A stretch of 64,000 bases of DNA from positions 5,184,001 through 5,248,000 of the forward strand of contig CAWAIF010000003.1 of assembly GCA_963782055.1 (NCBI GenBank), in the 5' to 3' direction. The position numbers and the translations under genes were made by a program. Positions 15,293-60,667 of this stretch are shown here, in pieces. Below the pieces are notes generated by a model. That model had not been told where the DNA came from and did not search any database. It saw only the letters and a program-made list of their open reading frames with translations. Position 1 is the first letter of the stretch; each line of letters begins with the position of its first letter. Source of the stretch: an uncultured delta proteobacterium. Lineage in GTDB: Bacteria; Myxococcota_A; Polyangia; Polyangiales; Polyangiaceae.

Positions 15293-15374
15293 AGGAAATG
15301 CTAGCGCGGTCGGGCGCGAAAGTTTGCGAAATCCATGGGGCCGTCCGGTCTCACTGGAAGGACGGACCAGGGTG
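15288..15374 (+). repeat. 99-bp unit with 12-bp core deletion (copy 3)
   Basis: ..GAAATCCAT|GGGGCCGTCC..; the CTTATGCGAA(A/G)T core is missing. Confidence 0.92.
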
Positions 15375-17779: not shown

Positions 17780-17828
17780 GTAGGAAATCCTAGCGCGGTC
17801 GGGCGCGAAAGTTTACGAAATCCATCTT
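17779..17828 (+). repeat. 99-bp unit left half (copy 4, split by module 1)
   Basis: CGTAGGAAATCCTAGCGCGGTCGGGCGCGAAAGTTTACGAAATCCATCTT. Confidence 0.92.
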
Positions 17829-18006
17829 GGACGAAGCCGCTGCGCGGCAGCGTGGCTCCGCATCAAGCTCGCTCGCGACCCGGGAGCCCCGCGAGCCGTG
17901 TGCGCGCTGACGAGCCCGCCTCGTAGCCCTCGCGTGCCGTGATGCGGGCGATCCTGCGGCGCGCGCCGCCCGCTCGTGGGCGCGCGCGGAGCCGAAGGAG
18001 GCCGCG

Positions 18007-18852
18007 ATGGGTGCGAAGCGAAGACTGCGGGACACGATGAGCGAGGACCTCGCGCTGCGAGGGATGAGCGCCAACACGATCGCCACGTACGTGGGGTGCG
18101 TGCGGCGGTTCGCGCAGTACCACGGGCGGTCGCCGTGCGCGCTGGGGGCGGCGGAGATCCGGACGTTCCTTTTGCACCTGGTGGCGGAGCGCAGGCTGGC
18201 GGCGCTGACGGTCAACGTGCACGCGGCCGCGCTGAGGTTTCTCTACGAGGTGACGCTGGAGCGGCCGGAGGCGACGCTGGGGATGGCGCGCATGCGGGTG
18301 CCGATGCACGTGCCGGTGGTGCTGACGAGCGCGGAGGTGGCGCGGCTGCTCGCGTCGCTCACGAGCCACAAGCACCGGGCCCTGGTGATGCTCGCCTACG
18401 GGGCGGGGCTGCGCGTGAGCGAGGTGTGCAAGCTCCGGGTGGACGACATCGATCCGAAGCGGATGCTCCTGCACGTGCGGCACACCAAGCGCGGGCGTGA
18501 GCGCTACGTGATGCTCAGCGCGAGGCTGCTGGCGACGCTGCGCGCGTACTGGAAGGCGTCACGACCCGCAGGACCGCAACTGTTTCCGGGGCGCGTGCCC
18601 GGGACGCTCCTCACGCGCGCGGCCGTCCACCGGGCGATCCTCAAGGCGGCGCGGCGCGCGGGCATCACCCGGCGCGTGTCGCCGCACACGCTGCGCCACA
18701 GCTTCGCCACGCACCTGCTCGACGCAGGGACCGACCTTCGCACGTTGCAGGTCTTGCTCGGGCACGCGTCGCTCAGGAGCACGATGGCCTACCTGCACGT
18801 GAGCACCGCCCGCGTGCAGTCGATTCAGAGCCCCCTCGACGCGCTGCCCTGA
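18007..18852 (+). CDS. Tyrosine recombinase/integrase with N-terminal SAM-like domain
   Basis: GLRVSE (R), TKRG (K), HTLRHSFATHLL (HxxR), LLGH, MAY (Y). Confidence 0.95.
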   Translation: MGAKRRLRDTMSEDLALRGMSANTIATYVGCVRRFAQYHGRSPCALGAAEIRTFLLHLVAERRLAALTVNVHAAALRFLYEVTLERPEATLGMARMRVPMHVPVVLTSAEVARLLASLTSHKHRALVMLAYGAGLRVSEVCKLRVDDIDPKRMLLHVRHTKRGRERYVMLSARLLATLRAYWKASRPAGPQLFPGRVPGTLLTRAAVHRAILKAARRAGITRRVSPHTLRHSFATHLLDAGTDLRTLQVLLGHASLRSTMAYLHVSTARVQSIQSPLDALP

Positions 18853-18858
18853 GCCCCG

Positions 18859-19815
18859 ATGCACCCGTCGTGTGCGCCCGCGCGCACGCGCGCGGCGCCC
18901 ATCGAGCTCGCGGACGTGGTGCGCGCCCACGGCGAGGCCTTCGCCGGCGGCCGCGTGCTGCGTCCCGAGGAGCGGTCGGCGCTGCGGGCGATCGAGCGAT
19001 GCCGGACCGCCGCGCTGGGCGGACATCTGGACGTGTGCACCGCGTGCGGGCTCGAGCGACCGTCGTACAACTCGTGCCGCAACCGGCACTGTCCCAAGTG
19101 CCAGTCGCTCGCGCAGGCGCGGTGGGTCGCCACGCGGCTCGAGCGCATTCTGCCCGTGCACTACTTCCACGTCGTCTTCACGCTCCCCGCCGAGCTGCGC
19201 GCCGTCGCGCGGCGCTCGCGCGCGCGGGTCTTCGACATGCTCTTCGCGAGCGCGGCCGACACGCTGGCCACCCTCGCGCGGGATCCGAAGTGGCTCGGCG
19301 CCGAGCTCGGCGTCACGATGGTCCTGCACACCTGGACGCGCGCGCTGCTCTTCCACCCCCACGTGCACGCCATCGTCACCGGCGGCGGACTCACCGGCGA
19401 CGCCGCGCGCTGGGTGCGCGCGCGCCGTCGCTTCCTCTTCCCCGTGCGCGTGATGGGCGTCTCGATGGGCGAGCGCGGCGTCACCTTCCGCACCAGAGAC
19501 GGCAAGTCGGTCACCGTCCCGGCCGAGGAGCTGCTCGCGCGCTTCGTCCAGCACGTGCTGCCGCGCGGCTTCGTCAAGATCCGCCACTACGGCCTGCACT
19601 CCGCCAGCCACGCCACCACGCGCCTCGAGACCGCACGCCGCAGACTGGGTCCGCACGCGCCCGCTGCGCGACCGGAGCGCCGTGCCGTCGCCGCCGACCT
19701 GCTGCTGCGAATCGCGGGCATCGACCTGCGCCGCTGCCCCGCTTGCCACACGCCTGCCCTCGTGCGCACCGCGCTGCCCGAGCCCCGAGCTCGCGCCCCG
19801 CCGAGGGCCGCATGA
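18859..19815 (+). pseudogene. IS91-family transposase with in-frame 201-bp deletion removing the catalytic YxxxY
   Basis: Zn-binding CTAC..SCRNRHCPKCQ and HUH HPHVH retained; YLGRY seen in 55420-56577 absent. Confidence 0.9.
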
Positions 19816-20142
19816 TCTCCCCGCGTCGTGCTCCACTGCGCTCGCTCCACGAGTGCGGCCCAGGCCCCTGTCCATCCGCGCCACCAAAAACCGCCCTCCG
19901 AGCACGCACGGCTGCCCGCTGCGCGCTCCGGGACGCCCGCGTCGAGCGCCGTCCCGCCGCCCGCTCGGCACCTCGCGCACCCGCACACGTGACCCACACG
20001 CCGCCAACTTCCCCATAGGGCTCCGAGGCCACCGCCTCGCCGCTGCCGCGCACCGGCTTCGTCCAACCGTCGATTTCGCGACCGCGCACCCGCGCCACGC
20101 GACCGCCGCCGCGACCCGGCGCGCTCACGCAATCGACTCTTA

Positions 20143-20190
20143 CTTATGCGAAATGGCCGTCCGGTCTCACTGGAAGGACGGACCAGGGTG
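20143..20190 (+). repeat. 99-bp unit right half (copy 4)
   Basis: CTTATGCGAAATGGCCGTCCGGTCTCACTGGAAGGACGGACCAGGGTG. Confidence 0.92.
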
Positions 20191-28565: not shown

Positions 28566-28650
28566 TCAGTGCGCGCCGACCAGCCGCACCAGCGTGCCCA
28601 TCACGTGCCGGAACCGCCCGCGCAGCACCTCGTCCAGCTCCGGCATGTAG
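28566..28650 (-). pseudogene. Orphan 3' gene tail (four-helix-bundle-like), cut at the repeat
   Basis: YMPELDEVLRGRFRHVMGTLVRLVGAH* begins at the repeat boundary. Confidence 0.4.
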
Positions 28651-28701
28651 CGCATAGGAACTGCTAGCGCGGTCGGGCGCGAAAGTTTACGAAATCCATC
28701 T
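28651..28701 (+). repeat. 99-bp unit left half (copy 5)
   Basis: CGCATAGGAACTGCTAGCGCGG..GAAATCCATCT followed directly by the intron. Confidence 0.92.
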
Positions 28702-28789
28702 ATCGGCATAGGGGCCCCGGGTTTCCCCGGGGACCCCTGCCACACCACCGGACAGGCGGGTCCGCATCCGGCGGTTCGGAGAGTTGAGG

Positions 28790-29249
28790 TCACGTGTCGA
28801 GCCGGGGAAGCCCCAGCTCGTCGAAGAGCTTGTTCGGCAGAGCCACGCTGAGGACGCGCATTCCCGAGGTTCGCCACCAGCGCGTCGTATTTGCTGCCGC
28901 GCGGCGAGCGTCGACGGGAGGGATCCCCCGTCGGCGCAGTTCTCGGAAGACGGTGACTCCTCGCACCCACTGCTTCAACTGCAGTGCGCGGAGTCGGTGC
29001 CGGATCCAAGAGTCCAGCTCGCGAAAGAGCGTGCGGAGCTCGACAAGCTGGAAGTAGTTCTTCCAGCCTGGCAAGTACCCTCGCAGATCTCGGCAGACCT
29101 GGGCCAGGCTCCGACCGCGCATGCGGCTCGTCATGTGCCGCACGCGGTCCTTCATCGTGTCGAGGGCCTTGCGCGCGATCGTGCAGCGGACCTCGTTCTT
29201 CGACGACAACCAAAAGGTGTAGCCGAGGAACTTCCGGTCTTGCACGGGT
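28790..29249 (-). pseudogene. ltrA: Intron RT/maturase, C-terminal part (RT7 and domain X)
   Basis: PVQDRKFLGYTF..GWKNYF..LDSWIRHRLR; in frame with the N-part after IS removal; no En domain. Confidence 0.9.
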
Positions 29250-29259
29250 GCCACCGCGC

Positions 29260-30704
29260 CATGCCCGATCTCTTAAGCACCGATCGCCCCAAGTTTGAGG
29301 GCGATTCGTTTCCTGGAGCGTGAAGGTTGTCGTTCGCGTGCCAGAGCGACGAGTGCCGCGCCCACGGTGGTCACGACGGCAGTCCACGCGGCGGTGCTCA
29401 GGGAGACGAGGGCGTCGACCAGGTCCCGCGCGTAGGCGCGCACGACGTGCAACGTCGCCAGGGGGCGCAGTTGCTCGAGAGGGACGTCGCGCGCGAGTGC
29501 AGCCTGGATCCTGACCGAGCGCACGAGCGCGTGGGCGAGCATCGCGCCGTAGGTGAGCGCCTTGATCGCGTGGGGATCGGCGGTGAAGGAGCGGCCGAGG
29601 TCGGCGGTCTGCTTCAGCTCGCGAAAGAGCAGCTCGATCAGCCAGCGGAGTCGGTAGGTCTGGATGATCTGCCGTGGCGAGAGCACGCTGCGCGGCACGG
29701 TGGTCAGGTACCAGCGGATGACGGTCGACTTGTGCGCGAGTCCCACGAGCCGCAATGCGACGGTGTCCTTGCCCTTGCCCCACGTCACGTCGAGGTCGAA
29801 GATCGTCCCGCGCTTGCGCGACACGCTCTGCAGGTAGTAGCCAAGCGACCAGTTGTGGAGCGGGGTGTGGCCGTTCTCCGAGATGTGCGCGGTCACGCGT
29901 ACCTTCGCCGTGGTCTTGAGGCGCATCAGCACGTGCGCGCCGGCAGCCTTCGCCTGGGTGAACAGAGCGCGCTCGAAAAAGCCGAGGTCGAAGAGGTAGA
30001 GCACCCCGCGCGTGAAGCTCGGGACCAGCTTCCGCCACAGCGGCGTCTCCGACGCGGTCTCCGCGTCGGAGACGCCGTGCTCGAGCAGGCCGGTCTTGAT
30101 GCTGTAGCCCATCACCCACTTGGTGCCGGCCTTGCCCTTGGTGCATCCCGGCAGCAGCTCGCGCCCGCGCGGTGGCACGCGCTGCCCCGTACCGTCGTAG
30201 ACCCGCACGTCCTCGAAGCGGGCGAGCGGCCCGCTCAGCTCCAGGCCCGCCGCCTTCGTCACCGACGCCACGAGGTGCTCGAGCGCCGCGCGGAAGAACG
30301 CCGCCGCCGACTCCTGCTTGAACCGCTTCTGGAACGGGCACGGGCGCATGAAGCCGAAGCGCCTCACGAAGATCGCCCGCAGCGACTCGAACGACAGCGT
30401 CTGGCCCGCGAGGAACCCCTCGACGACCGTGAGCACCAGGCGGAACGCGGTGGCGCGCCGCTGCCGCGGGTTGTAGCCGGTGCGGCCCCGAAGCTCGTCG
30501 ATGACCGCCGGCGTGAAGGTCCGCTGCAGCTGCTCCTCCACCGCGCTCGCCTCTTCGCTCGGGTCTGGACGGCTGCTCGTGGCTCGGGTAGCTCTCGTCG
30601 TCATCGGGCGTCCTCTCCTTGTTGGTGTCGCAACCGAACAACGAGAAAGGCGCCCGATTTATTTCCATCATTCCGCCACGTTATGTCCAAAGGATCTGGC
30701 CATG
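29260..30704 (-). mobile_element. IS4-family insertion sequence, 1445 bp
   Basis: 10-bp TSD GCCACCGCGC (29250-29259, 30705-30714); imperfect IRs CATGCCCGATCTCTT / CATGGCCAGATCCTT. Confidence 0.9.
29273..30604 (-). CDS. IS4-family DDE transposase
   Basis: VYDGT, LFDLGFF, YRLRWLIELLFRELKQ (YREK motif). Confidence 0.92.
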   Translation of the reverse strand: MTTRATRATSSRPDPSEEASAVEEQLQRTFTPAVIDELRGRTGYNPRQRRATAFRLVLTVVEGFLAGQTLSFESLRAIFVRRFGFMRPCPFQKRFKQESAAAFFRAALEHLVASVTKAAGLELSGPLARFEDVRVYDGTGQRVPPRGRELLPGCTKGKAGTKWVMGYSIKTGLLEHGVSDAETASETPLWRKLVPSFTRGVLYLFDLGFFERALFTQAKAAGAHVLMRLKTTAKVRVTAHISENGHTPLHNWSLGYYLQSVSRKRGTIFDLDVTWGKGKDTVALRLVGLAHKSTVIRWYLTTVPRSVLSPRQIIQTYRLRWLIELLFRELKQTADLGRSFTADPHAIKALTYGAMLAHALVRSVRIQAALARDVPLEQLRPLATLHVVRAYARDLVDALVSLSTAAWTAVVTTVGAALVALARERQPSRSRKRIALKLGAIGA

Positions 30705-31618
30705 GCCACCGCGCTCTTCGACTCGTTGATCTGGAGATGGAGCTTCGCGTAGAGACGCCGCAGCGCCTGCATGACCCGCTCGCCCGCTCGCCGTGACCGC
30801 ACGTAAACGTTGCTGTCATCGGCGTAGCGCACGAAGGCGTGTCCGCGCTTCTCCAGCTCCTTGTCGACTTCGTCGAGGAGCACGTTCGCAAGCATTGGCG
30901 AGAGAGGACCGCCCTGGGGCGTTCCCTCGTCGCGATCCATCACGACGCCGTTCGCCATGATGCCGGCGTTCAGGTAGCGACGGATGAGTCCCAGCACGCG
31001 CCGATCCTCGATTCGTTTGGCCAGTCTCCCCATGAGCACGTCGTGGTTGACGCGGTCGAAGAAAGCTTCGAGATCCACGTCGACCACCCATCGTCTTCCT
31101 TGCTGCACATACCGCTTCGCCTCGCGCACGGCGTCGTGCGCGCTGCGCCGCGGCCGGAAGCCGTGGCTGTGCTCCGAGAAGGTCGGATCGAATCGAGGCT
31201 GCAGGACCTGCAAGAGGGCCTGCTGGATGAGTCGGTCGAGCACCGTCGGGATGCCGAGCTGTCGCTCGCCGCCGCCGCTCTTCGGAATCACGTGCCGTCG
31301 CACCGGCTGCGGCTGGTACGTCCCCGCGAGCAGCTGCTCGCGGAGGGACGGCCAGTGCACGCGAAGGTGGTCCGGTAGCTCCTCCACCGTCATCCCGTCG
31401 ATGCCGGGACTGCCCTTGTTCCGCTTCACTCGCTTCAGCGCGGCCTGAAGGTTCTTGCGCGTGAGCGCCGCCTCCATCAGCCCGCTCGTTCCTGAGCGCT
31501 CGGTTCCATGGGTCGCCGAATCCGCTTCCACGCGTCGGTCGTCGCTCGGGGCTTCACCATCCGCGGCGGTCGGCGTCTCGCTCTTGGACTTCTGTGGCTG
31601 CGCGTTCTCGAGATCCAT
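30705..31618 (-). pseudogene. ltrA: Intron RT/maturase, N-terminal part (RT0-RT6)
   Basis: GSPGIDG, LGIPTVLDRLIQQA, GTPQGGPLSPMLAN, RYADD. Confidence 0.92.
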
Positions 31619-32226
31619 GGGCGTTTCGCCCTCCTCTCCGTTTGGCCCTTCGCAGCGATAGAGACTTCCGGGGTTCGGGGGGGGTCCCTGCCCGGCTCCT
31701 TCGCCGCTACTACGGCCTCTGCTGACTTCTCGCTCCGTCCGACGTTGTCGCCGGCCGTCGCCCTTTCAGGCGCGAGGCGAGATCTCCCCAGGTAAGAGCA
31801 TCAACCTTCACCGCACGACCGCCGGATATACGCCGCCGAGCTTCGGTCACGAGAGCTTCGCGGGTTCCAGTCCGCTCGCCCTGCTCGGCCACGCCTCCGA
31901 TCCGATTTCTGTACGTCGGCCCGCGGCTTCGCTCCCCACTTCCTCCAGACGGTCCCTCACGGTTCCGCCCTTGTGGTTCGCTTCTGTCATTGTGACCAAT
32001 TTCAGGAAGGACTTTCACCTCCGGGTTGATGCCCATGCTGGGCGCACTGGACGAAGCCGCTGCGCGGCAGCGTGGCTCCGCATCAAGCTCGCTCGCGACC
32101 CGGGAGCCCCGCGAGCCGTGTGCGCGCTGACGAGCCCGCCTCGTAGCCCTCGCGTGCCGTGATGCGGGCGATCCTGCGGCGCGCGCCGCCCGCTCGTGGG
32201 CGCGCGCGGAGCCGAAGGAGGCCGCG

Positions 32227-33072
32227 ATGGGTGCGAAGCGAAGACTGCGGGACACGATGAGCGAGGACCTCGCGCTGCGAGGGATGAGCGCCAACACGAT
32301 CGCCACGTACGTGGGGTGCGTGCGGCGGTTCGCGCAGTACCACGGGCGGTCGCCGTGCGCGCTGGGGGCGGCGGAGATCCGGACGTTCCTCTTGCACCTG
32401 GTGGCGGAGCGCAGGCTGGCGGCGCTGACGGTCAACGTGCACGCGGCCGCGCTGAGGTTTCTCTACGAGGTGACGCTGGAGCGGCCGGAGGCGACGCTGG
32501 GGATGGCGCGCATGCGGGTGCCGATGCACGTGCCGGTGGTGCTGACGAGCGCGGAGGTGGCGCGGCTGCTCGCGTCGCTCACGAGCCACAAGCACCGGGC
32601 CCTGGTGATGCTCGCCTACGGGGCGGGGCTGCGCGTGAGCGAGGTGTGCAAGCTCCGGGTGGACGACATCGATCCGAAGCGGATGCTCCTGCACGTGCGG
32701 CACACCAAGCGCGGGCGTGAGCGCTACGTGATGCTCAGCGCGAGGCTGCTGGCGACGCTGCGCGCGTACTGGAAGGCGTCACGACCCGCAGGACCGCAGC
32801 TGTTTCCGGGGCGCGTGCCCGGGACGCTCCTCACGCGCGCGGCCGTCCACCGGGCGATCCTCAAGGCGGCGCGGCGCGCGGGCATCACCCGGCGCGTGTC
32901 GCCGCACACGCTGCGCCACAGCTTCGCCACGCACCTGCTCGACGCAGGGACCGACCTTCGCACGTTGCAGGTCTTGCTCGGGCACGCGTCGCTCAGGAGC
33001 ACGATGGCCTACCTGCACGTGAGCACCGCCCGCGTGCAGTCGATTCAGAGCCCCCTCGACGCGCTGCCCTGA
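32227..33072 (+). CDS. Tyrosine recombinase/integrase
   Basis: Same 281-aa protein as 18007-18852. Confidence 0.95.
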   Translation: MGAKRRLRDTMSEDLALRGMSANTIATYVGCVRRFAQYHGRSPCALGAAEIRTFLLHLVAERRLAALTVNVHAAALRFLYEVTLERPEATLGMARMRVPMHVPVVLTSAEVARLLASLTSHKHRALVMLAYGAGLRVSEVCKLRVDDIDPKRMLLHVRHTKRGRERYVMLSARLLATLRAYWKASRPAGPQLFPGRVPGTLLTRAAVHRAILKAARRAGITRRVSPHTLRHSFATHLLDAGTDLRTLQVLLGHASLRSTMAYLHVSTARVQSIQSPLDALP

Positions 33073-33078
33073 GCCCCG

Positions 33079-34038
33079 ATGCACCCGTCGTGTGCGCCCG
33101 CGCGCACGCGCGCGGCGCCCATCGAGCTCGCGGACGTGGTGCGCGCCCACGGCGAGGCCTTCGCCGGCGGCCGCGTGCTGCGTCCCGAGGAGCGGTCGGC
33201 GCTGCGGGCGATCGAGCGATGCCGGACCGCCGCGCTGGGCGGACATCTGGACGTGTGCACCGCGTGCGGGCTCGAGCGACCGTCGTACAACTCGTGCCGC
33301 AACCGGCACTGTCCCAAGTGCCAGTCGCTCGCGCAGGCGCGGTGGGTCGCCACGCGGCTCGAGCGCATTCTGCCCGTGCACTACTTCCACGTCGTCTTCA
33401 CGCTCCCCGCCGAGCTGCGCGCCGTCGCGCGGCGCTCGCGCGCGCGGGTCTTCGACATGCTCTTCGCGAGCGCGGCCGACACGCTGGCCACCCTCGCGCG
33501 GGATCCGAAGTGGCTCGGCGCCGAGCTCGGCGTCACGATGGTCCTGCACACCTGGACGCGCGCGCTGCTCTTCCACCCCCACGTGCACGCCATCGTCACC
33601 GGCGGCGGACTCACCGGCGACGCCGCGCGCTGGGTGCGCGCGCGCCGTCGCTTCCTCTTCCCCGTGCGCGTGATGGGCGTCTCGATGGGCGAGCGCGGCG
33701 TCACCTTCCGCACCAGAGACGGCAAGTCGGTCACCGTCCCGGCCGAGGAGCTGCTCGCGCGCTTCGTCCAGCACGTGCTGCCGCGCGGCTTCGTCAAGAT
33801 CCGCCACTACGGCCTGCACTCCGCCAGCCACGCCACCACGCGCCTCGAGACCGCACGCCGCAGACTGGGTCCGCACGCGGCGCCCGCTGCGCGACCGGTG
33901 CGCCGTGCCGTCGCCGCCGACCTGCTGCTGCGAATCGCGGGCATCGACCTGCGCCGCTGCCCCGCTTGCCACACGCCTGCCCTCGTGCGCACCGCGCTGC
34001 CGGAGCCCCGAGCTCGCGACCCGCCGGGGGCCGCATGA
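33079..34038 (+). pseudogene. IS91-family transposase with the same 201-bp deletion
   Basis: VRVMG|VSMGERG junction, YLGRY missing. Confidence 0.9.
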
Positions 34039-34365
34039 TCTCCCCGCGTCGTGTTCCACTGCGCTCGCTCCACGAGTGCGGCGCAGGCCCCTGTCCATCC
34101 GCGCCACGAAAACCCGCCCTCCGAGCACGCACGGCTGCCCGCTGCGCGCTCCGGGACGCCCGCGTCGAGCGCCGTCCCGCCGCCCGCTCCGCACCTCGCG
34201 CACCCGCACGCGTGACCCACACGCCGCCAACTTCCCCATAGGGCTCCGAGGCCACCGCCTCGCCGCTGCCGCGCACCGGCTTCGTCCAACCGTCGATTTC
34301 GCGACCGCGCACCCGCGCCACGCGACCGCCGCCGCGACCCGGCGCGCTCACGCAATCGACTCTTA

Positions 34366-34415
34366 CTTATGCGAAGTGGGGCCGTCCGGTGTCACTGGAA
34401 GGACGGACCAGGGTG
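34366..34415 (+). repeat. 99-bp unit right half (copy 5)
   Basis: CTTATGCGAAGTGGGGCCGTCCGGTGTCACTGGAAGGACGGACCAGGGTG. Confidence 0.92.
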
Positions 34416-37284: not shown

Positions 37285-37391
37285 ACGGACCCCGGATCGC
37301 AGATGTTACACCGCTTCCGGTTCCGGCATGTGGGTACCGGTGTCTCCCCGGACCGGCGACGCAGGAGAGCTCCGAGCGGTCATGGTTCGAG

Positions 37392-37443
37392 CGCATAGGA
37401 AATGCTAGCGCGGTCGGGCGCGAAAGTTTACGAAATCCATCTT
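37392..37443 (+). repeat. 99-bp unit left half (copy 6)
   Basis: CGCATAGGAAATGCTAGCG..CCATCTT. Confidence 0.92.
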
Positions 37444-37621
37444 GGACGAAGCCGCTGCGCGGCAGCGTGGCTCCGCATCAAGCTCGCTCGCGACCCGGGA
37501 GCCCCGCGAGCCGTGTGCGCGCTGACGAGCCCGCCTCGTAGCCCTCGCGTGCCGTGATGCGGGCGATCCTGCGGCGCGCGCCGCCCGCTCGTGGGCGCGC
37601 GCGGAGCCGAAGGAGGCCGCG

Positions 37622-38467
37622 ATGGGTGCGAAGCGAAGACTGCGGGACACGATGAGCGAGGACCTCGCGCTGCGAGGGATGAGCGCCAACACGATCGCCA
37701 CGTACGTGGGGTGCGTGCGGCGGTTCGCGCAGTACCACGGGCGGTCGCCGTGCGCGCTGGGGGCGGCGGAGATCCGGACGTTCCTCTTGCACCTGGTGGC
37801 GGAGCGCAGGCTGGCGGCGCTGACGGTCAACGTGCACGCGGCCGCGCTGAGGTTTCTCTACGAGGTGACGCTGGAGCGGCCGGAGGCGACGCTGGGGATG
37901 GCGCGCATGCGGGTGCCGATGCACGTGCCGGTGGTGCTGACGAGCGCGGAGGTGGCGCGGCTGCTCGCGTCGCTCACGAGCCACAAGCACCGGGCCCTGG
38001 TGATGCTCGCCTACGGGGCGGGGCTGCGCGTGAGCGAGGTGTGCAAGCTCCGGGTGGACGACATCGATCCGAAGCGGATGCTCCTGCACGTGCGGCACAC
38101 CAAGCGCGGGCGTGAGCGCTACGTGATGCTCAGCGCGAGGCTGCTGGCGACGCTGCGCGCGTACTGGAAGGCGTCACGACCCGCAGGACCGCAGCTGTTT
38201 CCGGGGCGCGTGCCCGGGACGCTCCTCACGCGCGCGGCCGTCCACCGGGCGATCCTCAAGGCGGCGCGGCGCGCGGGCATCACCCGGCGCGTGTCGCCGC
38301 ACACGCTGCGCCACAGCTTCGCCACGCACCTGCTCGACGCAGGGACCGACCTTCGCACGTTGCAGGTCTTGCTCGGGCACGCGTCGCTCAGGAGCACGAT
38401 GGCCTACCTGCACGTGAGCACCGCCCGCGTGCAGTCGATTCAGAGCCCCCTCGACGCGCTGCCCTGA
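37622..38467 (+). CDS. Tyrosine recombinase/integrase
   Basis: Same 281-aa protein. Confidence 0.95.
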   Translation: MGAKRRLRDTMSEDLALRGMSANTIATYVGCVRRFAQYHGRSPCALGAAEIRTFLLHLVAERRLAALTVNVHAAALRFLYEVTLERPEATLGMARMRVPMHVPVVLTSAEVARLLASLTSHKHRALVMLAYGAGLRVSEVCKLRVDDIDPKRMLLHVRHTKRGRERYVMLSARLLATLRAYWKASRPAGPQLFPGRVPGTLLTRAAVHRAILKAARRAGITRRVSPHTLRHSFATHLLDAGTDLRTLQVLLGHASLRSTMAYLHVSTARVQSIQSPLDALP

Positions 38468-38473
38468 GCCCCG

Positions 38474-39433
38474 ATGCACCCGTCGTGTGCGCCCGCGCGC
38501 ACGCGCGCGGCGCCCATCGAGCTCGCGGACGTGGTGCGCGCCCACGGCGAGGCCTTCGCCGGCGGCCGCGTGCTGCGTCCCGAGGAGCGGTCGGCGCTGC
38601 GGGCGATCGAGCGATGCCGGACCGCCGCGCTGGGCGGACATCTGGACGTGTGCACCGCGTGCGGGCTCGAGCGACCGTCGTACAACTCGTGCCGCAACCG
38701 GCACTGTCCCAAGTGCCAGTCGCTCGCGCAGGCGCGGTGGGTCGCCACGCGGCTCGAGCGCATTCTGCCCGTGCACTACTTCCACGTCGTCTTCACGCTC
38801 CCCGCCGAGCTGCGCGCCGTCGCGCGGCGCTCGCGCGCGCGGGTCTTCGACATGCTCTTCGCGAGCGCGGCCGACACGCTGGCCACCCTCGCGCGGGATC
38901 CGAAGTGGCTCGGCGCCGAGCTCGGCGTCACGATGGTCCTGCACACCTGGACGCGCGCGCTGCTCTTCCACCCCCACGTGCACGCCATCGTCACCGGCGG
39001 CGGACTCACCGGCGACGCCGCGCGCTGGGTGCGCGCGCGCCGTCGCTTCCTCTTCCCCGTGCGCGTGATGGGCGTCTCGATGGGCGAGCGCGGCGTCACC
39101 TTCCGCACCAGAGACGGCAAGTCGGTCACCGTCCCGGCCGAGGAGCTGCTCGCGCGCTTCGTCCAGCACGTGCTGCCGCGCGGCTTCGTCAAGATCCGCC
39201 ACTACGGCCTGCACTCCGCCAGCCACGCCACCACGCGCCTCGAGACCGCACGCCGCAGACTGGGTCCGCACGCGGCGCCCGCTGCGCGACCGGTGCGCCG
39301 TGCCGACGCCGCCGACCTGCTGCTGCGAATCGCGGGCATCGACCTGCGCCGCTGCCCCGCTTGCCACACGCCTGCCCTCGTGCGCACCGCGCTGCCGGAG
39401 CCCCGAGCTCGCGACCCGCCGGGGGCCGCATGA
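38474..39433 (+). pseudogene. IS91-family transposase with the same 201-bp deletion
   Basis: YLGRY missing. Confidence 0.9.
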
Positions 39434-39767
39434 TCTCCCCGCGTCGTGTTCCACTGCGCTCGCTCCACGAGTGCGGCGCAGGCCCCTGTCCATCCGCGCC
39501 ACGAAAACCCGCCCTCCGAGCACGCACGGCTGCCCGCTGCGCGCTCCGGGACGCCCGCGTCGAGCGCCGTCCCGCCGCCCGCTCCGCACCTCGCGCACCC
39601 GCACGCGTGACCCACACGCCGCCAACTTCCCCATAGGGCTCCGGGCTCCGAGGCCACCGCCTCGCCGCTGCCGCGCACCGGCTTCGTCCAACCGTCGATT
39701 TCGCGACCGCGCACCCGCGCCACGCGACCGCCGCCGCGACCCGGCGCGCTCACGCAATCGACTCTTA

Positions 39768-39817
39768 CTTATGCGAAGTGGGGCCGTCCGGTGTCACTGG
39801 AAGGACGGACCAGGGTG
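39768..39817 (+). repeat. 99-bp unit right half (copy 6)
   Basis: CTTATGCGAAGTGGGG..CAGGGTG. Confidence 0.92.
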
Positions 39818-40157
39818 GCTCGAAGCGCTCGCCCGCGCCGCTGGGATGCCTCGCGATCATGTGGCGCACGGCTGCCGCCAACGGGATCCGGATGGGCTTC
39901 GCCGAGCAAGGGTCGCCGGCTACGTCAGGACGGGGCAGCGCGAGACCTTGCCCTCAGCAGGGTCAGTGCTCGATGTCGCTGTGCTTCGCCCTGCCGGAGA
40001 AGAGCTGCACCCTTCGACAATCGCCGCGCAGAACATCACATCGTTGTAGATCAACAGGAGCCTTCCGCGTGACGACCCAGTCGGACCGCAACACCGCGCA
40101 GAACGTGAGTCAATTGCGGAGCGATTCCCAGCACCCGACGCCATGGGAGACCGCGGT

Positions 40158-41252
40158 TCAGTCACCGCCAAACGGCGGGTGTGACGCGACCCAGATGTCA
40201 TACTTTCCGCCGCTCCCCGAGCGCTGACTGGTGAAGTAGAGGCTGCAGGAGTCCGGCGAGATCCATCCTGGGATGTCCACACCCTGGTTGGAGGCAAGCT
40301 CCGTGACGACGGCGGCGTTCGCGAACAGGGAGCTCGTCGTGGCACGGTTCGCTACCCAGACGTCGCCTCCTTGATAGTAGTACAGCGTCAGCCCGTCGCC
40401 CGTCACCACGGGATGCGGGACATCCGCGACGCCCGACACGAACACTTGCACCGGCTTGGAGCATGTCCCCTTGCCAGTGCAGTCCGCCTCGAAGAGAGGC
40501 AAGTCAGCGTTGTTGCCCTGCATGGTCAAGTACAACTTACTACCGTCCTCGGTCACATATGGCCACCGATGGAAGACGTTCGGCTGGCTGACGCCTGTCA
40601 CCACCGACGGGGTGCCGAATGGCATCGCGGTGCTCGTGCGCTGGCTCACGAAGATGTCGAAGAATGACGCAGCGTCGAAGTCGTTCGACTCGAAGTACAT
40701 CGTGAGCCCATCCGCCGTAACAGCCGGGGCGTCGTCTATGAGGGAGCCGTTGACGTTGCCGACAGGCGCGACGTTGCCGAAGGCATCGCTCCTTGTCGCG
40801 CGGGTGGCCTGGTAGATGTCCACGCTCTGGTTGGCGTTCGCGCCGCGCGCGAAGTAGATCGTCAGCTCGTCGGGGCTGAGGGAGCCGACCAGCTCGTAGT
40901 CCGCCGTGTTGATGTTCCCGCCCAGCGGCGTCGGTGGCATGAAGGGCTTGCCCAGATCGCACGGCGGCTGGCCCGAGTCGGTCGGCGCGGCGTGGTCACT
41001 TCCGTCCCCACTGGCGTCGAGGTCTGCATCGACCCCCGCGTCGAGGCCCGAGCAGTCGCATGCCGAGTATGCCGTCCCCGCCGCGTTGCAGACCTGGTAC
41101 CCGGTGCAGCTCCCGGCGCCGACGCAACTGACCGACTGGTTCGGGATGCATGCCGGGGACGACGACACGGGGGGATCGCCTCCGCCGCACTGGAACGCGA
41201 GGGCCGCGCCGACCGCCGCGGCGGTGAATAGGACAAGGTACTGTCTCGACAT
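40158..41252 (-). CDS. Secreted PD40/TolB-like beta-propeller protein
   Basis: Signal peptide; LSPDELTIYF, VTADGLTMYF, VTEDGSKLY, ISPDSCSLYF repeats. Confidence 0.82.
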   Translation of the reverse strand: MSRQYLVLFTAAAVGAALAFQCGGGDPPVSSSPACIPNQSVSCVGAGSCTGYQVCNAAGTAYSACDCSGLDAGVDADLDASGDGSDHAAPTDSGQPPCDLGKPFMPPTPLGGNINTADYELVGSLSPDELTIYFARGANANQSVDIYQATRATRSDAFGNVAPVGNVNGSLIDDAPAVTADGLTMYFESNDFDAASFFDIFVSQRTSTAMPFGTPSVVTGVSQPNVFHRWPYVTEDGSKLYLTMQGNNADLPLFEADCTGKGTCSKPVQVFVSGVADVPHPVVTGDGLTLYYYQGGDVWVANRATTSSLFANAAVVTELASNQGVDIPGWISPDSCSLYFTSQRSGSGGKYDIWVASHPPFGGD

Positions 41253-41623
41253 GATGCCCTCCATCGACCGGCCGCGATGATGGCTCGTCGCCACAACAAC
41301 ACAGAGCACGATCCCACTCGTGGCGCAAGGCGCGGGCCTGCGCTGCCGGCTGCCGGGGACCTGGTCGTTCCCGGTCCGGCAGCGTTCTCATGGCTGGAGG
41401 CGCGCCACCAAGGCCTCCCCACTGACCGCGACCGCGCGCGTGACGGTGCCGGACGGCAAGGTCATCGTGTCGGCGCGTGTCCGCGCAGCATCCGACCACC
41501 ACGGAGTCCGGCCACGTGGGGAACGCAAGCCTCAGAAGATGTTCGCGCTGCTCTGCGACGAGCCGGAGCCGAAGCTCGCCAAGTTCTTCCCACCGGAATC
41601 GAACTGCGCGTCGCCTCACACCG

Positions 41624-42166
41624 TTAACGTTGAGTCTCACACGCGCGCGTGCAGGCATTGTGCACGGCATCGGCTCCGTCAAGGCAGCGTTGCAGAGCGC
41701 CTCCGCCATTCGCACACCACGCCCGTCGGCAGGTCCGACGAACCGTGCGAATGCACGTGTTGCGATCAGCGTTGTCCGCGGCAACGTCGGCTCTACAGTC
41801 CTCGAGAATCTGGGGTAGGTCTCCAAGGCACACATTCTCGCAGAACGCACGCGCCGCGAAACCACGGCACACTACATGACATTTTTGCGTACGCTCGGTA
41901 GCGACGCTCGTACAACTCCCCACATCTTCGGGCGAACCGCATACGGCGTCACCGACCCGGCAGTATGCGTCGCAGGCGGTACACTCCATGCTCCTGACGA
42001 GCACCGGGCGTGCGCAGGCGTCGAGGCAACCAGCGCGACGCTTCCGCGCCACCAGCGCGTCCCGCTCGGCCATCGGCCTGCAGCCCCATAGACCGAGGGC
42101 GACGACGATAAGCAGCGCCGGAAAGGAGGTGACGCGACGCATCCCAGTTAGCCGCGACATCATCAT
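41624..42166 (-). CDS. Hypothetical Cys-rich lipoprotein
   Basis: LWGC lipobox-like; adjacent to the Sel1 gene. Confidence 0.5.
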   Translation of the reverse strand: MMMSRLTGMRRVTSFPALLIVVALGLWGCRPMAERDALVARKRRAGCLDACARPVLVRSMECTACDAYCRVGDAVCGSPEDVGSCTSVATERTQKCHVVCRGFAARAFCENVCLGDLPQILEDCRADVAADNADRNTCIRTVRRTCRRAWCANGGGALQRCLDGADAVHNACTRACETQR

Positions 42167-42169
42167 GCG

Positions 42170-43621
42170 TCATGGATCGGTGTTGTCCGTGGCGCGCCGG
42201 CACCCGATGGTGAGCCCTTGATCACACGCCTTCGCATACAGCCGTTGAGCAGCTACCGCATCCGGTCGCGTTCCGACGCCGACCGCCGTGAGCCGCGCCA
42301 AAGTCAAGCACGCAGTCGACTCGCCCTCATTGCAGGCCAGATCGTCAAATGATACCGCGATGCTGGCGTCTCGTGAAGTTCCGATGCCAGCTTCGTAGAC
42401 GCGGCCCACGTTGGCGCAAGCTTGCCCGAGTCCCTCCTGGCACGCCTTGATGTAGAGCTCTACGGCGCGTGCAGCGAACCCGCATCCTGGTGTCCTCTCG
42501 TAGACTTGCGCCAAGTCGTTGCAGCCTCCCGCTCCGTCGCGGCCGCCATTCAAGCAGGCTCGTTTGTAGAGGCGAAGCGCCGTTGCCTCATCCCGCTCGA
42601 CGCCGAACCCAACTTGGTAGAGCTGCGCAAGGTCCTCGCATCCTACCGGATCGTCATGAGCGCACGCGTGTCGATATAGCTCCGCGGCGCGGACTGGATT
42701 GAAGCTCACCGTAATGCCATGCTGGTAGGCAACGCCCAGGTTGACGCAGGCGCTCTCACCGCCCCCATGACCACACGCTCGCCGGTATAACTTGACTGCG
42801 CGCGCCGTGTCGACGGGTACACCGCGGCCGCTGTCATACAGCCACCCTAGATTGCCACATCCAACCATGTCACCCCCCGCGCATCCTCGCCAATAGCTCG
42901 TCGCCGCGCGAGCGTAATCCTGGATACCACCGCGCCCGCGTTCGAAGAGGGCGCCCAGGTTGCTGCAGGCGCGAGCCAGACCCCTGCCGCAAAGCGAATC
43001 GTAGAGGAGTGCCGCTTGCGGCACATCGCGACTGTCATCGTCGTAGAGCCACGCGAGTTGGAGGCAGGCCTCGACGTCGCCGGCGTTGCATGTAGCCTGC
43101 TGGATGGTGATGGCGTGATCAACGTCTCGCGGGACACCAAGCCCCCCCGCATAATCAATTCCCAAACGCCTACATCCAACGATCTGTCCCCCGTAGCAAG
43201 CACGTTGATTGAGGCGCGCGGCGCGTTTGAGATCGGTGCTCACACCAATGCCGTTCGCGCAGAGCCACCCCAGGTCCAGACAGCCTTCGGCGTCGCCAAG
43301 CTGGCACCCCCGCTCGTCGAGTTCGGCCGCCTGCTTATCGTCTCGACTGACGACAATACCTTGTAGATAAAGCGATCCCGCCGCCGTACAACTCCCTGCG
43401 ACGCCGCGGGAGCATTCCAACTGGAGAATGGTGAGGGAAGGGGCGCGCGGGCCGCGCGCCGCGGTGCTAGCAGTTCCCCTGCAGCATCCAGACGCATCGG
43501 GGTTCTCGCCGGACCGACAGAGCGAGCTACATGTCACCGCCTGTCCCTGAGCGGCTGAAGCACCGAGCAACGGAAGGAGAAATGCCAGGGGCCAAAGGGG
43601 AGGGGAACAGCGCATTCTCAC
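42170..43621 (-). CDS. Sel1-like repeat (Hcp-type, Cys-containing) protein
   Basis: Repeated C.NLG.LY..G.GV..D...A..LY..AC. Confidence 0.88.
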   Translation of the reverse strand: MRMRCSPPLWPLAFLLPLLGASAAQGQAVTCSSLCRSGENPDASGCCRGTASTAARGPRAPSLTILQLECSRGVAGSCTAAGSLYLQGIVVSRDDKQAAELDERGCQLGDAEGCLDLGWLCANGIGVSTDLKRAARLNQRACYGGQIVGCRRLGIDYAGGLGVPRDVDHAITIQQATCNAGDVEACLQLAWLYDDDSRDVPQAALLYDSLCGRGLARACSNLGALFERGRGGIQDYARAATSYWRGCAGGDMVGCGNLGWLYDSGRGVPVDTARAVKLYRRACGHGGGESACVNLGVAYQHGITVSFNPVRAAELYRHACAHDDPVGCEDLAQLYQVGFGVERDEATALRLYKRACLNGGRDGAGGCNDLAQVYERTPGCGFAARAVELYIKACQEGLGQACANVGRVYEAGIGTSRDASIAVSFDDLACNEGESTACLTLARLTAVGVGTRPDAVAAQRLYAKACDQGLTIGCRRATDNTDP

Positions 43622-43861
43622 ATGATAGCTCAGGCGCGCTCACGGGCAAAGGGCGTCCGGTGGCCTCCGTAGGGCTCGTTAGGCTCCCAGTCGCGGTTGA
43701 CACCCGCTCCAGTCGGAGCCCACGGAAGGCTGCAGGCTCCGCCCGCACGCAGATGTCGGCAGATGTTCACTGCTGTCGCACCGGGCGGCCTCGCGAAGGG
43801 GGTGCGTGGTGGCGGGGCGGGCCACTCGAACGCTCGAACGCCTGAACTTCCGGCACGTTGG

Positions 43862-43960
43862 CGCATAGGAAATCCTAGCGCGGTCGGGCGCGAAAGTTTA
43901 CGGAATCCATCTTATGCGAAGTGGGGCCGTCCGGTGTCACTGGAAGGACGGACCAGGGTG
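43862..43960 (+). repeat. 99-bp unit, intact empty copy (copy 7)
   Basis: Left and right halves joined through a single CTT (43911-43913). Confidence 0.95.
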
Positions 43961-46906: not shown

Positions 46907-46908
46907 GT

Positions 46909-54057: not shown

Positions 54058-54336
54058 GTCGATGGGGATCCCAGGGTACCCGAACTTGGGGTGTCGGGAG
54101 CTTCAAGGGACGACCTCTGGCCCAAGCCGCCGACCCCACGATCTGCGCTTCCGGCATGGTCCGCCGGGGCAGTTGGCCTGACCCCCGATGGTACCCCCAA
54201 CGCAGGCCGTTTTGATCGAAGCGTCCCCTCCCGTGTATTCACCCCATGGGAAGCGCACGAAACACCATCCAGGCGTCCCAAGCCGATGAAACGGGAGGTA
54301 GCGACCCGGCCCGTACCTGCCTCGTCTGCGGCAGGG

Positions 54337-54388
54337 CGCATAGGAAATCCTAGCGCGGTCGGGCGCGAAAGTTTACGGAATCCATCTT
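54337..54388 (+). repeat. 99-bp unit left half (copy 8)
   Basis: CGCATAGGAAATCCTAGCG..CCATCTT. Confidence 0.92.
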
Positions 54389-54566
54389 GGACGAAGCCGC
54401 TGCGCGGCAGCGTGGCTCCGCATCAAGCTCGCTCGCGACCCGGGAGCCCCGCGAGCCGTGTGCGCGCTGACGAGCCCGCCTCGTAGCCCTCGCGTGCCGT
54501 GATGCGGGCGATCCTGCGGCGCGCGCCGCCCGCTCGTGGGCGCGCGCGGAGCCGAAGGAGGCCGCG

Positions 54567-55412
54567 ATGGGTGCGAAGCGAAGACTGCGGGACACGATGA
54601 GCGAGGACCTCGCGCTGCGAGGGATGAGCGCCAACACGATCGCCACGTACGTGGGGTGCGTGCGGCGGTTCGCGCAGTACCACGGGCGGTCGCCGTGCGC
54701 GCTGGGGGCGGCGGAGATCCGGACGTTCCTTTTGCACCTGGTGGCGGAGCGCAGGCTGGCGGCGCTGACGGTCAACGTGCACGCGGCCGCGCTGAGGTTT
54801 CTCTACGAGGTGACGCTGGAGCGGCCGGAGGCGACGCTGGGGATGGCGCGCATGCGGGTGCCGATGCACGTGCCGGTGGTGCTGACGAGCGCGGAGGTGG
54901 CGCGGCTGCTCGCGTCGCTCACGAGCCACAAGCACCGGGCCCTGGTGATGCTCGCCTACGGGGCGGGGCTGCGCGTGAGCGAGGTGTGCAAGCTCCGGGT
55001 GGACGACATCGATCCGAAGCGGATGCTCCTGCACGTGCGGCACACCAAGCGCGGGCGTGAGCGCTACGTGATGCTCAGCGCGAGGCTGCTGGCGACGCTG
55101 CGCGCGTACTGGAAGGCGTCACGACCCGCAGGACCGCAGCTGTTTCCGGGGCGCGTGCCCGGGACGCTCCTCACGCGCGCGGCCGTCCACCGGGCGATCC
55201 TCAAGGCGGCGCGGCGCGCGGGCATCACCCGGCGCGTGTCGCCGCACACGCTGCGCCACAGCTTCGCCACGCACCTGCTCGACGCAGGGACCGACCTTCG
55301 CACGTTGCAGGTCTTGCTCGGGCACGCGTCGCTCAGGAGCACGATGGCCTACCTGCACGTGAGCACCGCCCGCGTGCAGTCGATTCAGAGCCCCCTCGAC
55401 GCGCTGCCCTGA
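54567..55412 (+). CDS. Tyrosine recombinase/integrase
   Basis: Same 281-aa protein. Confidence 0.95.
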   Translation: MGAKRRLRDTMSEDLALRGMSANTIATYVGCVRRFAQYHGRSPCALGAAEIRTFLLHLVAERRLAALTVNVHAAALRFLYEVTLERPEATLGMARMRVPMHVPVVLTSAEVARLLASLTSHKHRALVMLAYGAGLRVSEVCKLRVDDIDPKRMLLHVRHTKRGRERYVMLSARLLATLRAYWKASRPAGPQLFPGRVPGTLLTRAAVHRAILKAARRAGITRRVSPHTLRHSFATHLLDAGTDLRTLQVLLGHASLRSTMAYLHVSTARVQSIQSPLDALP

Positions 55413-55419
55413 GCCCCCG

Positions 55420-56577
55420 ATGCACCCGTCGTGTGCGCCCGCGCGCACGTGCGCGGCGCCCATCGAGCTCGCGGACGTGGTGCGCGCCCACGGCGAGGCC
55501 TTCGCCGGCGGCCGCGTGCTGCGTCCCGAGGAGCGGTCGGCGCTGCGGGCAATCGAGCGATGCCGGACCGCCGCGCTGGGCGGACATCTGGACGTGTGCA
55601 CCGCGTGCGGGCTCGAGCGACCGTCGTACAACTCGTGCCGCAACCGGCACTGTCCCAAGTGCCAGTCGCTCGCGCAGGCGCGGTGGGTCGCCACGCGGCT
55701 CGAGCGCATTCTGCCCGTGCACTACTTCCACGTCGTCTTCACGCTCCCCGCCGAGCTGCGCGCCGTCGCGCGGCGCTCGCGCGCGAGGGTCTTCGACATG
55801 CTCTTCGCGAGCGCGGCCGACACGCTGGCCACCCTCGCGCGGGATCCGAAGTGGCTCGGCGCCGAGCTCGGCGTCACGATGGTCCTGCACACCTGGACGC
55901 GCGCGCTGCTCTTCCACCCCCACGTGCACGCCATCGTCACCGGCGGCGGACTCACCGGCGACGCCGCGCGCTGGGTGCGCGCGCGCCGTCGCTTCCTCTT
56001 CCCCGTGCGCGTGATGGGCGCCCTCTTTCGCGGCAAGATGCTCGCCGCTCTCGAGCGCGCCCACGCGCGCGGCCTCGTCGACCTGGGCGGCGTCGACCTG
56101 CTGGCGCTCCGACGCAAGGCCTGGGTCGTCTACGCCAAGCGACCCTTCGGCGGCCCCGCTCAGGTCATCCGCTACCTCGGTCGCTACACTCACCGCGTCG
56201 GCATCTCCAACCACCGCTTCGTCTCGATGGGCGAGCGCGGCGTCACCTTCCGCACCAGAGACGGCAAGTCGGTCACCGTCCCGGCCGAGGAGCTGCTCGC
56301 GCGCTTCGTCCAGCACGTGCTGCCGCGCGGCTTCGTCAAGATCCGCCACTACGGCCTGCACTCCGCCAGCCACGCCACCACGCGCCTCGAGACCGCACGC
56401 CGCAGACTGGATCCGCACGCGCCCGCTGCGCGACCGGAGCGCCGTGCCGTCGCCGCCGACCTGCTGCTGCGAATCGCGGGCATCGACCTGCGCCGCTGCC
56501 CCGCTTGCCACACGCCTGCCCTCGTGCGCACCGCGCTGCCCGAGCCCCGAGCTCGCGCCCCGCCGAGGGCCGCATGA
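55420..56577 (+). CDS. IS91-family (HUH/Y2) transposase, intact
   Basis: Zn-binding domain, HPHVH, RYLGRYTHRVGISNHR, QHVLPRGFVKIRHYG. Confidence 0.95.
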   Translation: MHPSCAPARTCAAPIELADVVRAHGEAFAGGRVLRPEERSALRAIERCRTAALGGHLDVCTACGLERPSYNSCRNRHCPKCQSLAQARWVATRLERILPVHYFHVVFTLPAELRAVARRSRARVFDMLFASAADTLATLARDPKWLGAELGVTMVLHTWTRALLFHPHVHAIVTGGGLTGDAARWVRARRRFLFPVRVMGALFRGKMLAALERAHARGLVDLGGVDLLALRRKAWVVYAKRPFGGPAQVIRYLGRYTHRVGISNHRFVSMGERGVTFRTRDGKSVTVPAEELLARFVQHVLPRGFVKIRHYGLHSASHATTRLETARRRLDPHAPAARPERRAVAADLLLRIAGIDLRRCPACHTPALVRTALPEPRARAPPRAA

Positions 56578-56904
56578 TCTCCCCGCGTCGTGCTCCACTG
56601 CGTTCGCTCCACGAGTGCGGCCCAGGCCCCGGTCCATCCGCGCCACCAAAAACCGCCCCCCGAGCACGCACGGCTGCCCGCTGCGCGCTCCGGGACGCCC
56701 GCGTCGAGCGCCGTCCCGCCGCCCGCTCCGCACCTCGCGCACCCGCACGCGTGACCCACACGCCGCCAACTTCCCCATAGGGCTCCGAGGCCACCGCCTC
56801 GCCGCTGCCGCGCACCGGCTTCGTCCAACCGTCGATTTCGCGACCGCGCACCCGCGCCACGCGACCGCCGCCGCGACCCGGCGCGCTCACGCAATCGACT
56901 CTTA

Positions 56905-56954
56905 CTTATGCGAAGTGGGGCCGTCCGGTGTCACTGGAAGGACGGACCAGGGTG
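56905..56954 (+). repeat. 99-bp unit right half (copy 8)
   Basis: CTTATGCGAAGTGGGG..CAGGGTG. Confidence 0.92.
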
Positions 56955-60322: not shown

Positions 60323-60568
60323 TTGCCGGCGGCTCGCCACTGGACCGGGTCCTTGTCCCGGAGGTCTACCGTGACATTGGGTAACGTTCTCGGTCGGCTG
60401 CACGGGAGGAGCTCTTCTTGGTGTCGTCGGGCCTGTACATGCCTGATAGCGGTTGCGCTGACCGCGCCCGCCTGCGGCGTGCGGAGCAACCTGGACGCCT
60501 GCCCCACCTCCGAGACGGCCTGCGGCTTCACCTGCGCCGATCTCAGCGGTGACCCGGCCAACTGCGGG
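60323..60568 (+). pseudogene. Cys-rich lipoprotein, 3'-truncated at the repeat
   Basis: LIAVALTAPACG..CPTSETACGFTCADLSGDPANCG runs straight into CGCATAGG. Confidence 0.65.
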
Positions 60569-60667
60569 CGCATAGGAAATGCTAGCGCGGTCGGGCGCGA
60601 AAGTTTACGAAATCCATCTTATGCGAAGTGGGGCCGTCCGGTGTCACTGGAAGGACGGACCAGGGTG
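60569..60667 (+). repeat. 99-bp unit, intact empty copy (copy 9)
   Basis: Single CTT at 60618-60620. Confidence 0.95.

Follow-up and report, generated by a model that had tools for sequence, protein, structure and literature searches.

The roles of the ori and ter ends, the absence of target site duplications (TSDs), tetranucleotide targets and one-ended transposition of IS91-type elements are covered in the available parts of a series of papers (PMC3189936, PMC5714925, PMC12772301, PMC13393415, PMC5737581, PMC13181058). For the ISCR branch, the available text of a 2018 paper (PMC6218425) describes a variable DNA region beyond the oriIS of ISCR1, and states that no ISCR transposition had been experimentally demonstrated. 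One-ended miniatures of 229, 360 and 679 nt are given for IS801 in the accessible portion of PMC3189936. These, and the products of one-ended IS91 and IS1294 transposition (PMC13181058, likewise accessible in part), are TSD-free ori-end fragments that can carry adjacent DNA, and appear there as scattered by-products ending at a target-like tetranucleotide. In Acinetobacter, pdif modules are repeated, discrete modules with non-terminal XerCD dif-like sites between blocks of foreign DNA, according to the available text of PMC9771954. Integron-like tyrosine recombinases without the IntI insertion are linked to IS91 elements in the part of 10.1101/542381 that is available.

The window analyzed here, a stretch of 64,000 nucleotides from a genome of 7.58 Mb in three contigs (~72% GC; two of them are cited as C2 and C3), contains a variation on this ISCR/IS91 one-ended capture. 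By its sequence, the repeat involved is a real, well-defined 100-bp ori-end mini-element of an ISCR-type transposon, carrying a mimic of a dif site. The coordinates of its parts and of the associated features are listed in Table 1. The letters that a first-pass annotation gave for a 99-bp unit at 43862-43960 were confirmed there on re-reading and the repeat is real, but it is one base longer, because a G precedes that start in 31 of the 32 young left ends of the whole genome, and because the corresponding base is not G in 8 of 10 unit-free copies of left flanks found in the rest of the genome (two further rows were set aside, one misaligned and one with a local duplication). With relaxed thresholds the genome contains 43 left ends and 42 right ends, far above chance, and 20 young intact units. 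The units cluster on C3 at 2.72-2.74, 4.41-4.49, 5.18-5.27 and 6.17-6.20 Mb, and the window contributes 8 left ends and 8 right ends, each of them on the + strand. The intact unit at 43861-43960 is identical to the one behind a gene for a 573-aa transposase at C3:5265299-5267020, ~17 kb past the window end.

Table 1. Repeat units, their parts, and associated genes and segments (window coordinates unless a contig is named).
Feature	Position	Strand	Remark
Lone ter half, diverged	2503..2550	+	
Lone ori half plus core, diverged	12371..12430	+	
Older unit, 12-bp core deletion	15288..15374	+	
Unit split by module, transposase minus ~200 bp including tyrosine motif	17776..20190	+	
Unit split by group II intron and deleted module	28650..34415	+	intron 28702-32047 holds IS4 transposase gene
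Unit split by deleted module	37391..39817	+	
Cargo left of unit	39818..43860	.	99.9-100% to C3:2734656-2738675 and parts of C3:5256707-5262054
Intact 100-bp unit (ori tip, dif-like core, ter-like hairpin)	43861..43960	+	
oriIS-type tip TTCCTATGCGC	43861..43871	-	7-10/11 nt vs tips of 8 plasmid IS91/ISCR records
dif-like 11-6-11 core	43895..43922	+	19/22 arm bases match C3:3558740
ter-like end: GC stem, two possible registers, conserved CACTGGAA loop, 7 nt before tip GTG (or GTGA)	43927..43960	+	
Unit split at core by intact recombinase plus IS91-transposase module	54336..56954	+	module 54387-56905
Tyrosine recombinase, 281 aa, integron-integrase-related, without IntI insertion	54567..55412	+	
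IS91-branch transposase of module, 385 aa, HUH and two-tyrosine motif intact	55420..56577	+	
Module-internal conserved motif, AATCCCCATAG family	56768..56780	+	46/75 related loci, 3' of transposase
attC-like module right end: GTCCAAC, imperfect hairpin, crossover C^TT	56823..56907	+	
Second intact unit, 2 differences	60568..60667	+	
573-aa transposase gene copies	C3:4409731-4411452; C3:5265299-5267020; C3:2741278 onward (partly deleted)		
Older pair	C2		

The absence of TSDs, noted at first pass, was borne out, the longest flank repeat being 0-2 nt in 20/20 intact young units, and a one-base TSD model was rejected, since in intact units the left base showed no dependence on the right one. MITEs are defined by terminal inverted repeats and TSDs; the unit, with dissimilar ends and no TSD, is not one. 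Its non-autonomous nature, also proposed at first pass, is supported. Scans of the unit for promoters and terminators returned none, and an Rfam scan found no family at the unit and group II intron domains only. An inverted repeat between left end and core had been reported as well: CGCATAGGA / TCTTATGCG is present, with 1 mismatch in 9, but does not exceed chance, as 40/200 shuffles hold a comparable one. In the related type-B unit 3/9 positions are kept, and the repeat is lost in diverged copies. It consists of the ori motif meeting the XerD-like arm of the core, and is best read as a coincidence. Folding of the whole unit, suggested at first pass, gave values little better than those of shuffles (z -1.67 and -1.37). 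Against the general anatomy of attC and dif sites, identification of the unit as an attC was rejected on this weak fold and on the lack of conservation of both the tip/core pairing and a 58-bp attC-like fold.

On the minus strand the left end reads GCTAGGATTTCCTATGCG, with a C/G variant in other copies. Its first-pass reading as an oriIS-type tip held up in alignment with the ends of 8 annotated plasmid records of the IS91 family, which stood in for curated ISfinder ends. Identity over 11 nt was 10 for two ISCR-like records, 9 for the IS1294-like, IS801-like, ISCR1, ISCR2 and ISPps1 records, and 7 for IS91. In these records TTCCTAT plus 4 nt lies 3' of each transposase, on its sense strand, and the same 4-nt distance is found in the unit. 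The ISCR1 tip used for comparison agrees with the 22-bp oriIS printed in the available text of PMC13023784. TTCCTAT occurs only 62 times in the genome, counting both strands, and the ori tip mapped from unit-free alleles coincides with the tip from the oriIS alignment. The last base of the left flank is a purine in 30/32 cases, with nothing further conserved; a tetranucleotide target 5' of the ori nick was not seen in the position counts.

The right hairpin and its CAGGGTG terminus are present as first described, with an architecture like that of terIS, and the right end is a genuine junction that has been used repeatedly. Between stem and tip there are 7 nt, as in the tandem terIS of the IS801-like record. 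Among 13 diverged copies in this genome, 79.5% of cells pair in the original stem register, with more covariation than in all 500 shuffles; the shifted register GTCCG/CGGAC gives 92% pairing and little covariation. As the copies tested are related, this conservation in two registers is moderate support for the hairpin. Right flanks start with G (24) or AG (9), 33 of 34 in all, and once the A is removed have G first in 33 and C second in 24. The A after GTG is the native next base toward the 573-aa transposase gene, so that stops would occur at both GTG^ and GTGA^. In 9/10 cases the unit-free allele of a right flank shows R^G, one degenerate case having been set aside. The junction rules thus differ, being R^N on the left and R^GC on the right, and a shared G-Y-R junction motif was absent from position counts. 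A cargo-free tandem, in which GTG is joined directly to GCGC, is present at C3:4433378. The ter-like stem sits between the transposase gene and ori, and no terIS was resolved upstream of the gene. We interpret the right tip as an internal stop site, not as the far end of the element. Compared with the IS801, IS91 and IS1294 fragments, the unit has one dominant length, a hairpin before the stop and no tetranucleotide rule, and occurs in ordered rows. Upstream of the 573-aa gene, three direct CCGGAC repeats (C3 ~5267060-5267130, 4409620-4409660) echo the CGGAC arm of the hairpin, and are candidates for a binding motif or an upstream terIS.

A family search with Y2_Tnp (PF04986) revealed this second, long transposase type. 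The 573-aa protein scores over the PF04986 cut-off, contains HFH and RYALRP motifs like those of ISCR1/2, and in a tree of 17 rows groups with ISCR1, ISCR2 and ISPps1 at 100/100; in the same tree the module protein groups with IS91, IS801 and IS1294. Against NF052416, the NCBIfam model for ISCR clade Ia, it gives an E of 8e-82, which is below the cut-off of that model. The gene exists in three recent copies and stops 36 bp from the right tip of the unit, in the canonical IS91 orientation. An HUH transposase with an oriIS tip 3' of the gene on its sense strand is what is found here; the 55420-56577 gene points the other way. The proximity and orientation of the 573-aa gene, together with its ISCR grouping, indicate that the unit is the native 3' end of an ISCR-type element. 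The first-pass proposal that the 55420-56577 protein mobilizes the unit was not upheld, as the unit sits behind a different gene of the ISCR branch, and the 55420 module is oppositely directed. The likeness to ISCR1, ISCR2/ISVsa3 and ISPps1 comprises a long HUH transposase of the same branch (~39-40% identity), an oriIS 3' of the gene, a TTCCTAT tip and variable DNA beyond oriIS (PMC6218425, in its available text). The differences are a fixed internal stop 100 nt from ori that leaves many solo ends, a dif-like core, arrays of up to ~20 units with an age gradient, and no class 1 integron. A motif resembling GTGCTCA...GTCCG...TTCCAG spans the equivalent position in ~7/35 homologue downstream regions, as judged by eye. 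The genome also encodes a second ISCR-type transposase, of 467 aa (C3:2732868-2734271, 6775490-6776619), which differs in its ori-like tip and of which many 3' remnants exist.

The units form three arrays, each beyond the ori tip of an anchor 573-aa gene, with most units in anchor orientation and a few inverted. One of them is that of the window, and it ends 17 kb past it. No anchor gene accompanies two further clusters (C3 ~6.17-6.33 Mb and 5.98 Mb). The farther a unit lies from the anchor, the more it tends to differ from the anchor unit (rho 0.86 for n=24 half-units, and 0.74 for n=42, the two halves of a unit not being independent and a few weak opposite-strand matches being included). This divergence gradient points to polar growth of the arrays, with the youngest units by the anchor gene.

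Between the units lie cargo segments of 0 to 11.9 kb (n=24, 67.6% GC), the boundaries of which cut genes. No segment recurs with both boundaries the same (0/24), and 12 have matches elsewhere; over its full length, one segment of 300 bp corresponds to a locus free of units. The cargo on the left of the unit at 43861-43960 occurs three times, with differing, nested boundaries. Cargo genes, called by a rough codon filter, are not co-oriented with the units, with 21 minus and 8 plus in one array, and 15 and 9 in the oppositely oriented one. None of 12 informative non-anchor intact units with a unit-free allele had both flanks from one locus, and no young mini-element with both flanks from one site was found in the genome. 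Circle junctions were absent from three sequencing runs (contigs, low depth), and one run contained a right junction that is absent from the junctions of the assembly. An array separated by repeats, lying by an enzyme gene and apparently growing from one end, resembles integron cassette arrays. In contrast to integrons there is no IntI, the cargo is cut arbitrarily and is not co-oriented, and the attC-like fold is unconserved; integron identity was rejected, as whole-gene co-oriented cassettes and conserved attC folds are missing. The cargo of the window includes a type I restriction-modification operon and a D12-class adenine methylase (both within 45941-54057) and a gene for a Panacea/SocA antitoxin-like protein (44520-45113), and at 56908-63526 units interrupt coding fragments of RHS repeats, which lie on both strands. 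Elsewhere, a 340-bp piece (C3:4411588-4411929 = C2:3479-3818) is bounded by the ori tips of two oppositely oriented units.

Rows of solo ori ends also occur beyond the ori of homologous transposases in two unrelated genomes, G061 and G065. In G061 the solos are 94-bp ori ends beyond a 40%-identical transposase, and in G065 they measure 83-135 bp. G061 showed no gradient (rho 0.23, n=12), and no transposase of the module type with the single query used. Single-query searches found no solo ori ends in G001/G006, G049 or G067, nor did cross-genome queries, and G050 contains tandem copies with transposase remnants instead of solos.

We propose a mechanism that builds on what the sequence itself shows: how the unit is composed and exactly where its tips lie, three arrays that each have an anchor, an age gradient along the units, and cargo segments with nested boundaries. 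The 573-aa transposase would nick the + strand at R^GCGC (ori), and would usually stop after 100 nt, at GTG^ or GTGA^. The resulting mini-element would insert at R^GC in other DNA, giving the right junctions. Read-through from the inserted mini-element would carry downstream DNA up to a loose purine stop, and the circle of unit and cargo would close, giving the left junctions. This circle would then join at the ori tip of the anchor, via the transposase or by recombination within the unit. With its enzymatic steps inferred, the model would explain why the two junction types obey different rules, where a simple insertion of the IS91 kind has a single target rule, and also the tandem without cargo, the unit orientation and the gradient. 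Counterpoints are that insertion of the mini-element predicts young copies with matching flanks, which were not found, and that the purpose of the dif mimic lies outside the model, with no unit near the chromosomal site. On balance we favor the reading that the unit is an ISCR-type 3' end, of which the 573-aa transposase probably makes free mini-element copies, and that this would build polar arrays of captured DNA. The repeat thus likely enables the bacterium to add captured DNA in an ordered stack. Only tentatively do we extend this to an acquisition array run by an HUH transposase, in which each event would add a unit and 0.3-12 kb by the gene, leaving a chronological record, possibly with joining by XerCD.

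The core of the unit bears on this joining. The first-pass annotation saw it as an att core with the oriIS and terIS of the 55420-56577 element fused around it. The core does appear to be a recombination target, and more exactly it nearly copies the dif site predicted for the host, but the fused outer ends were not upheld, as the module is directed away and has its own ends in other genomes. The core agrees with the site at C3:3558740 in 19/22 arm bases and 4/6 spacer bases. This site is the sole non-unit match at <=5 arm mismatches, and lies at the GC-skew maximum and at a polarity switch of the KOPS motif. It is present in 26/60 relatives, in single copy except in one, and a reversed control gave none, so it is very probably the host dif. 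The DNA search of the 60 relatives matched mostly their dif sites and not units. Downstream of the homologous transposases, a dif-like site near ori was found on the unit strand in 11/32 at p<=0.05 (mean best scores of 12.5 vs 12.0 between strands), and 8 others match dif best on the opposite strand, at a constant 31 nt. An anchored test relied on automatic placement of the ori tip, which was off for many homologues; only 14 cleared the score threshold, and p<=0.05 was reached by 6/14. No such site was found in the ISCR1, ISCR2, ISPps1, IS91, IS801 and IS1294 records. In two loci, L149 and L150 (G001, G006), the dif-like site near ori, 3' of the transposase, has a 7-bp spacer instead of 6. Another unit carries a 1.6-kb IS inside its XerD-like arm, with a 9-bp duplication (C3:4450560-4452182).

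These matches, the XerC/D-like genes of the genome, and the retention of a dif-like site near ori in all three genomes with solo ori ends would fit joining of unit and cargo circles into existing units by XerCD through the core, in the manner of pdif modules, with the transposase merely seeding units. We consider this unlikely, as no cargo segment repeats both boundaries, the boundaries cut genes and are nested, and cargo genes do not follow unit orientation. Moreover, no unit lies at the chromosomal dif, or within 817 kb of it, and older copies lose the XerC-like arm and keep their tips. Signs that XerCD has acted on the core were likewise absent from the sequence. The likeness to pdif modules extends to non-terminal dif-like sites between blocks of foreign DNA; here, however, the sites lie within a transposon end, share a direct orientation, and flank DNA that has been cut up. 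Assignment to the pdif class was rejected, as discrete recurring modules are absent.

The mismatched flanks and nested boundaries could also arise passively, from mini-elements that hop near the transposase gene and direct-repeat deletions that fuse unrelated flanks, with no directed capture. The regions are indeed rich in IS, introns and broken genes, and the few inverted units fit as well. Such debris does not predict one-sided arrays, near-uniform orientation or a gradient from the anchor, and it does predict unit-free alleles with R^G at left junctions, where the G is missing in 8/10. We regard this explanation as improbable, and retain polar growth by the 573-aa transposase.

Units in the window are also split by a module of a recombinase and an IS91-type transposase. 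The split falls exactly at the spacer C^TT, which in the intact unit corresponds to the boundary between spacer and XerD-like arm (between 43911 and 43912), and removal of the module there restores the unit exactly. The catalytic tyrosine motif is lost in 3/4 module copies of the window. The recombinase matches TIGR02249 at positions 4-179 and 239-315 only, below the cut-off, and without the specific insertion it was rejected as an IntI. It precedes the transposase in 75/79 related loci. In other genomes, multi-copy modules start at TT, and their far end follows an attC-like hairpin, 70-100 bp beyond the right inverted repeat; the TT start is found in 31/50 loci. Their left flanks have A at -7 in 25/50 (background 0.26, p=3e-4, with related loci not independent), and several read as 11-6-11 sites. 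Within this genome, a diverged type-B unit has a 98.5% identical module at the spacer/XerD-arm boundary, and one other module ends in a foreign right arm. The order of module insertions is unreadable from the module SNP table, because the copies are mosaic.

The module at 54387-56905 is likely a separate element that inserts at the spacer/XerD-arm boundary by means of its own recombinase, and may, once inserted, ride between ori and ter. Its internal CCCCATAG motif is a candidate nick site of its own 385-aa transposase. The first-pass model, in which the unit is the remnant left when the recombinase excises the module and the 55420-56577 protein moves the unit, agrees with the exact restoration, with 13 left halves joined to the module at the core and with the module holding the only IS91-type transposase of the window, but is very improbable given that this transposase faces away from the ori tip, the reverse of what all 8 reference records show, that ATAGGAA lies upstream of the recombinase in only 2/61 related loci, that multi-copy relatives have their own ends, that G061 has arrays and no module-type transposase with the query used, and that one module type is found in two unit types. 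The module shares the recombinase-upstream order and the missing IntI insertion with the IS91 elements of 10.1101/542381; the attC-like end and the dif-like 11-6-11 preference are not described in the available part of that source, and the module targets the end of another element.

A group II intron lies just after the inverted-repeat hairpin of the module in three places (window 28702-32047; C3 ~6186555-6191357; 2272361-2274252), and the window copy is interrupted by the IS4 transposase gene at 29273-30604. At C3:2272277-2272360 the left inverted repeat of the module is in reverse orientation, with the right-end spacer connected to it across the intron, a pattern suggestive of inversion between the 26-bp repeats. 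A related module in locus L005 (boundaries near 4950 and 7500) is apparently inserted at a tRNA-like sequence, at G^TT.

Our literature search, conducted mainly outside subscription journals, found no account of arrays of solo oriIS ends or of dif sites in ISCR ends. Resistance-gene capture is associated with ISCR elements, and the way in which DNA comes to sit beyond oriIS has so far been modelled, not shown. The locus offers a natural substrate of 100 nt whose tips are mapped, rules for its junctions drawn from 66 ends, a candidate enzyme that is intact, and a dated array, which makes the mechanism directly testable. That the module inserts at dif-like sites hints at what recombinases do in the IS91 elements that carry them. 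In this clade, a dif-like site close to oriIS points to a connection of rolling-circle transposition with Xer recombination, for which we found no published account. If the tentative extension to an acquisition array is true, this would be an acquisition array analogous to CRISPR arrays and integrons, yet built by rolling-circle chemistry, with the unit acting as the repeat.
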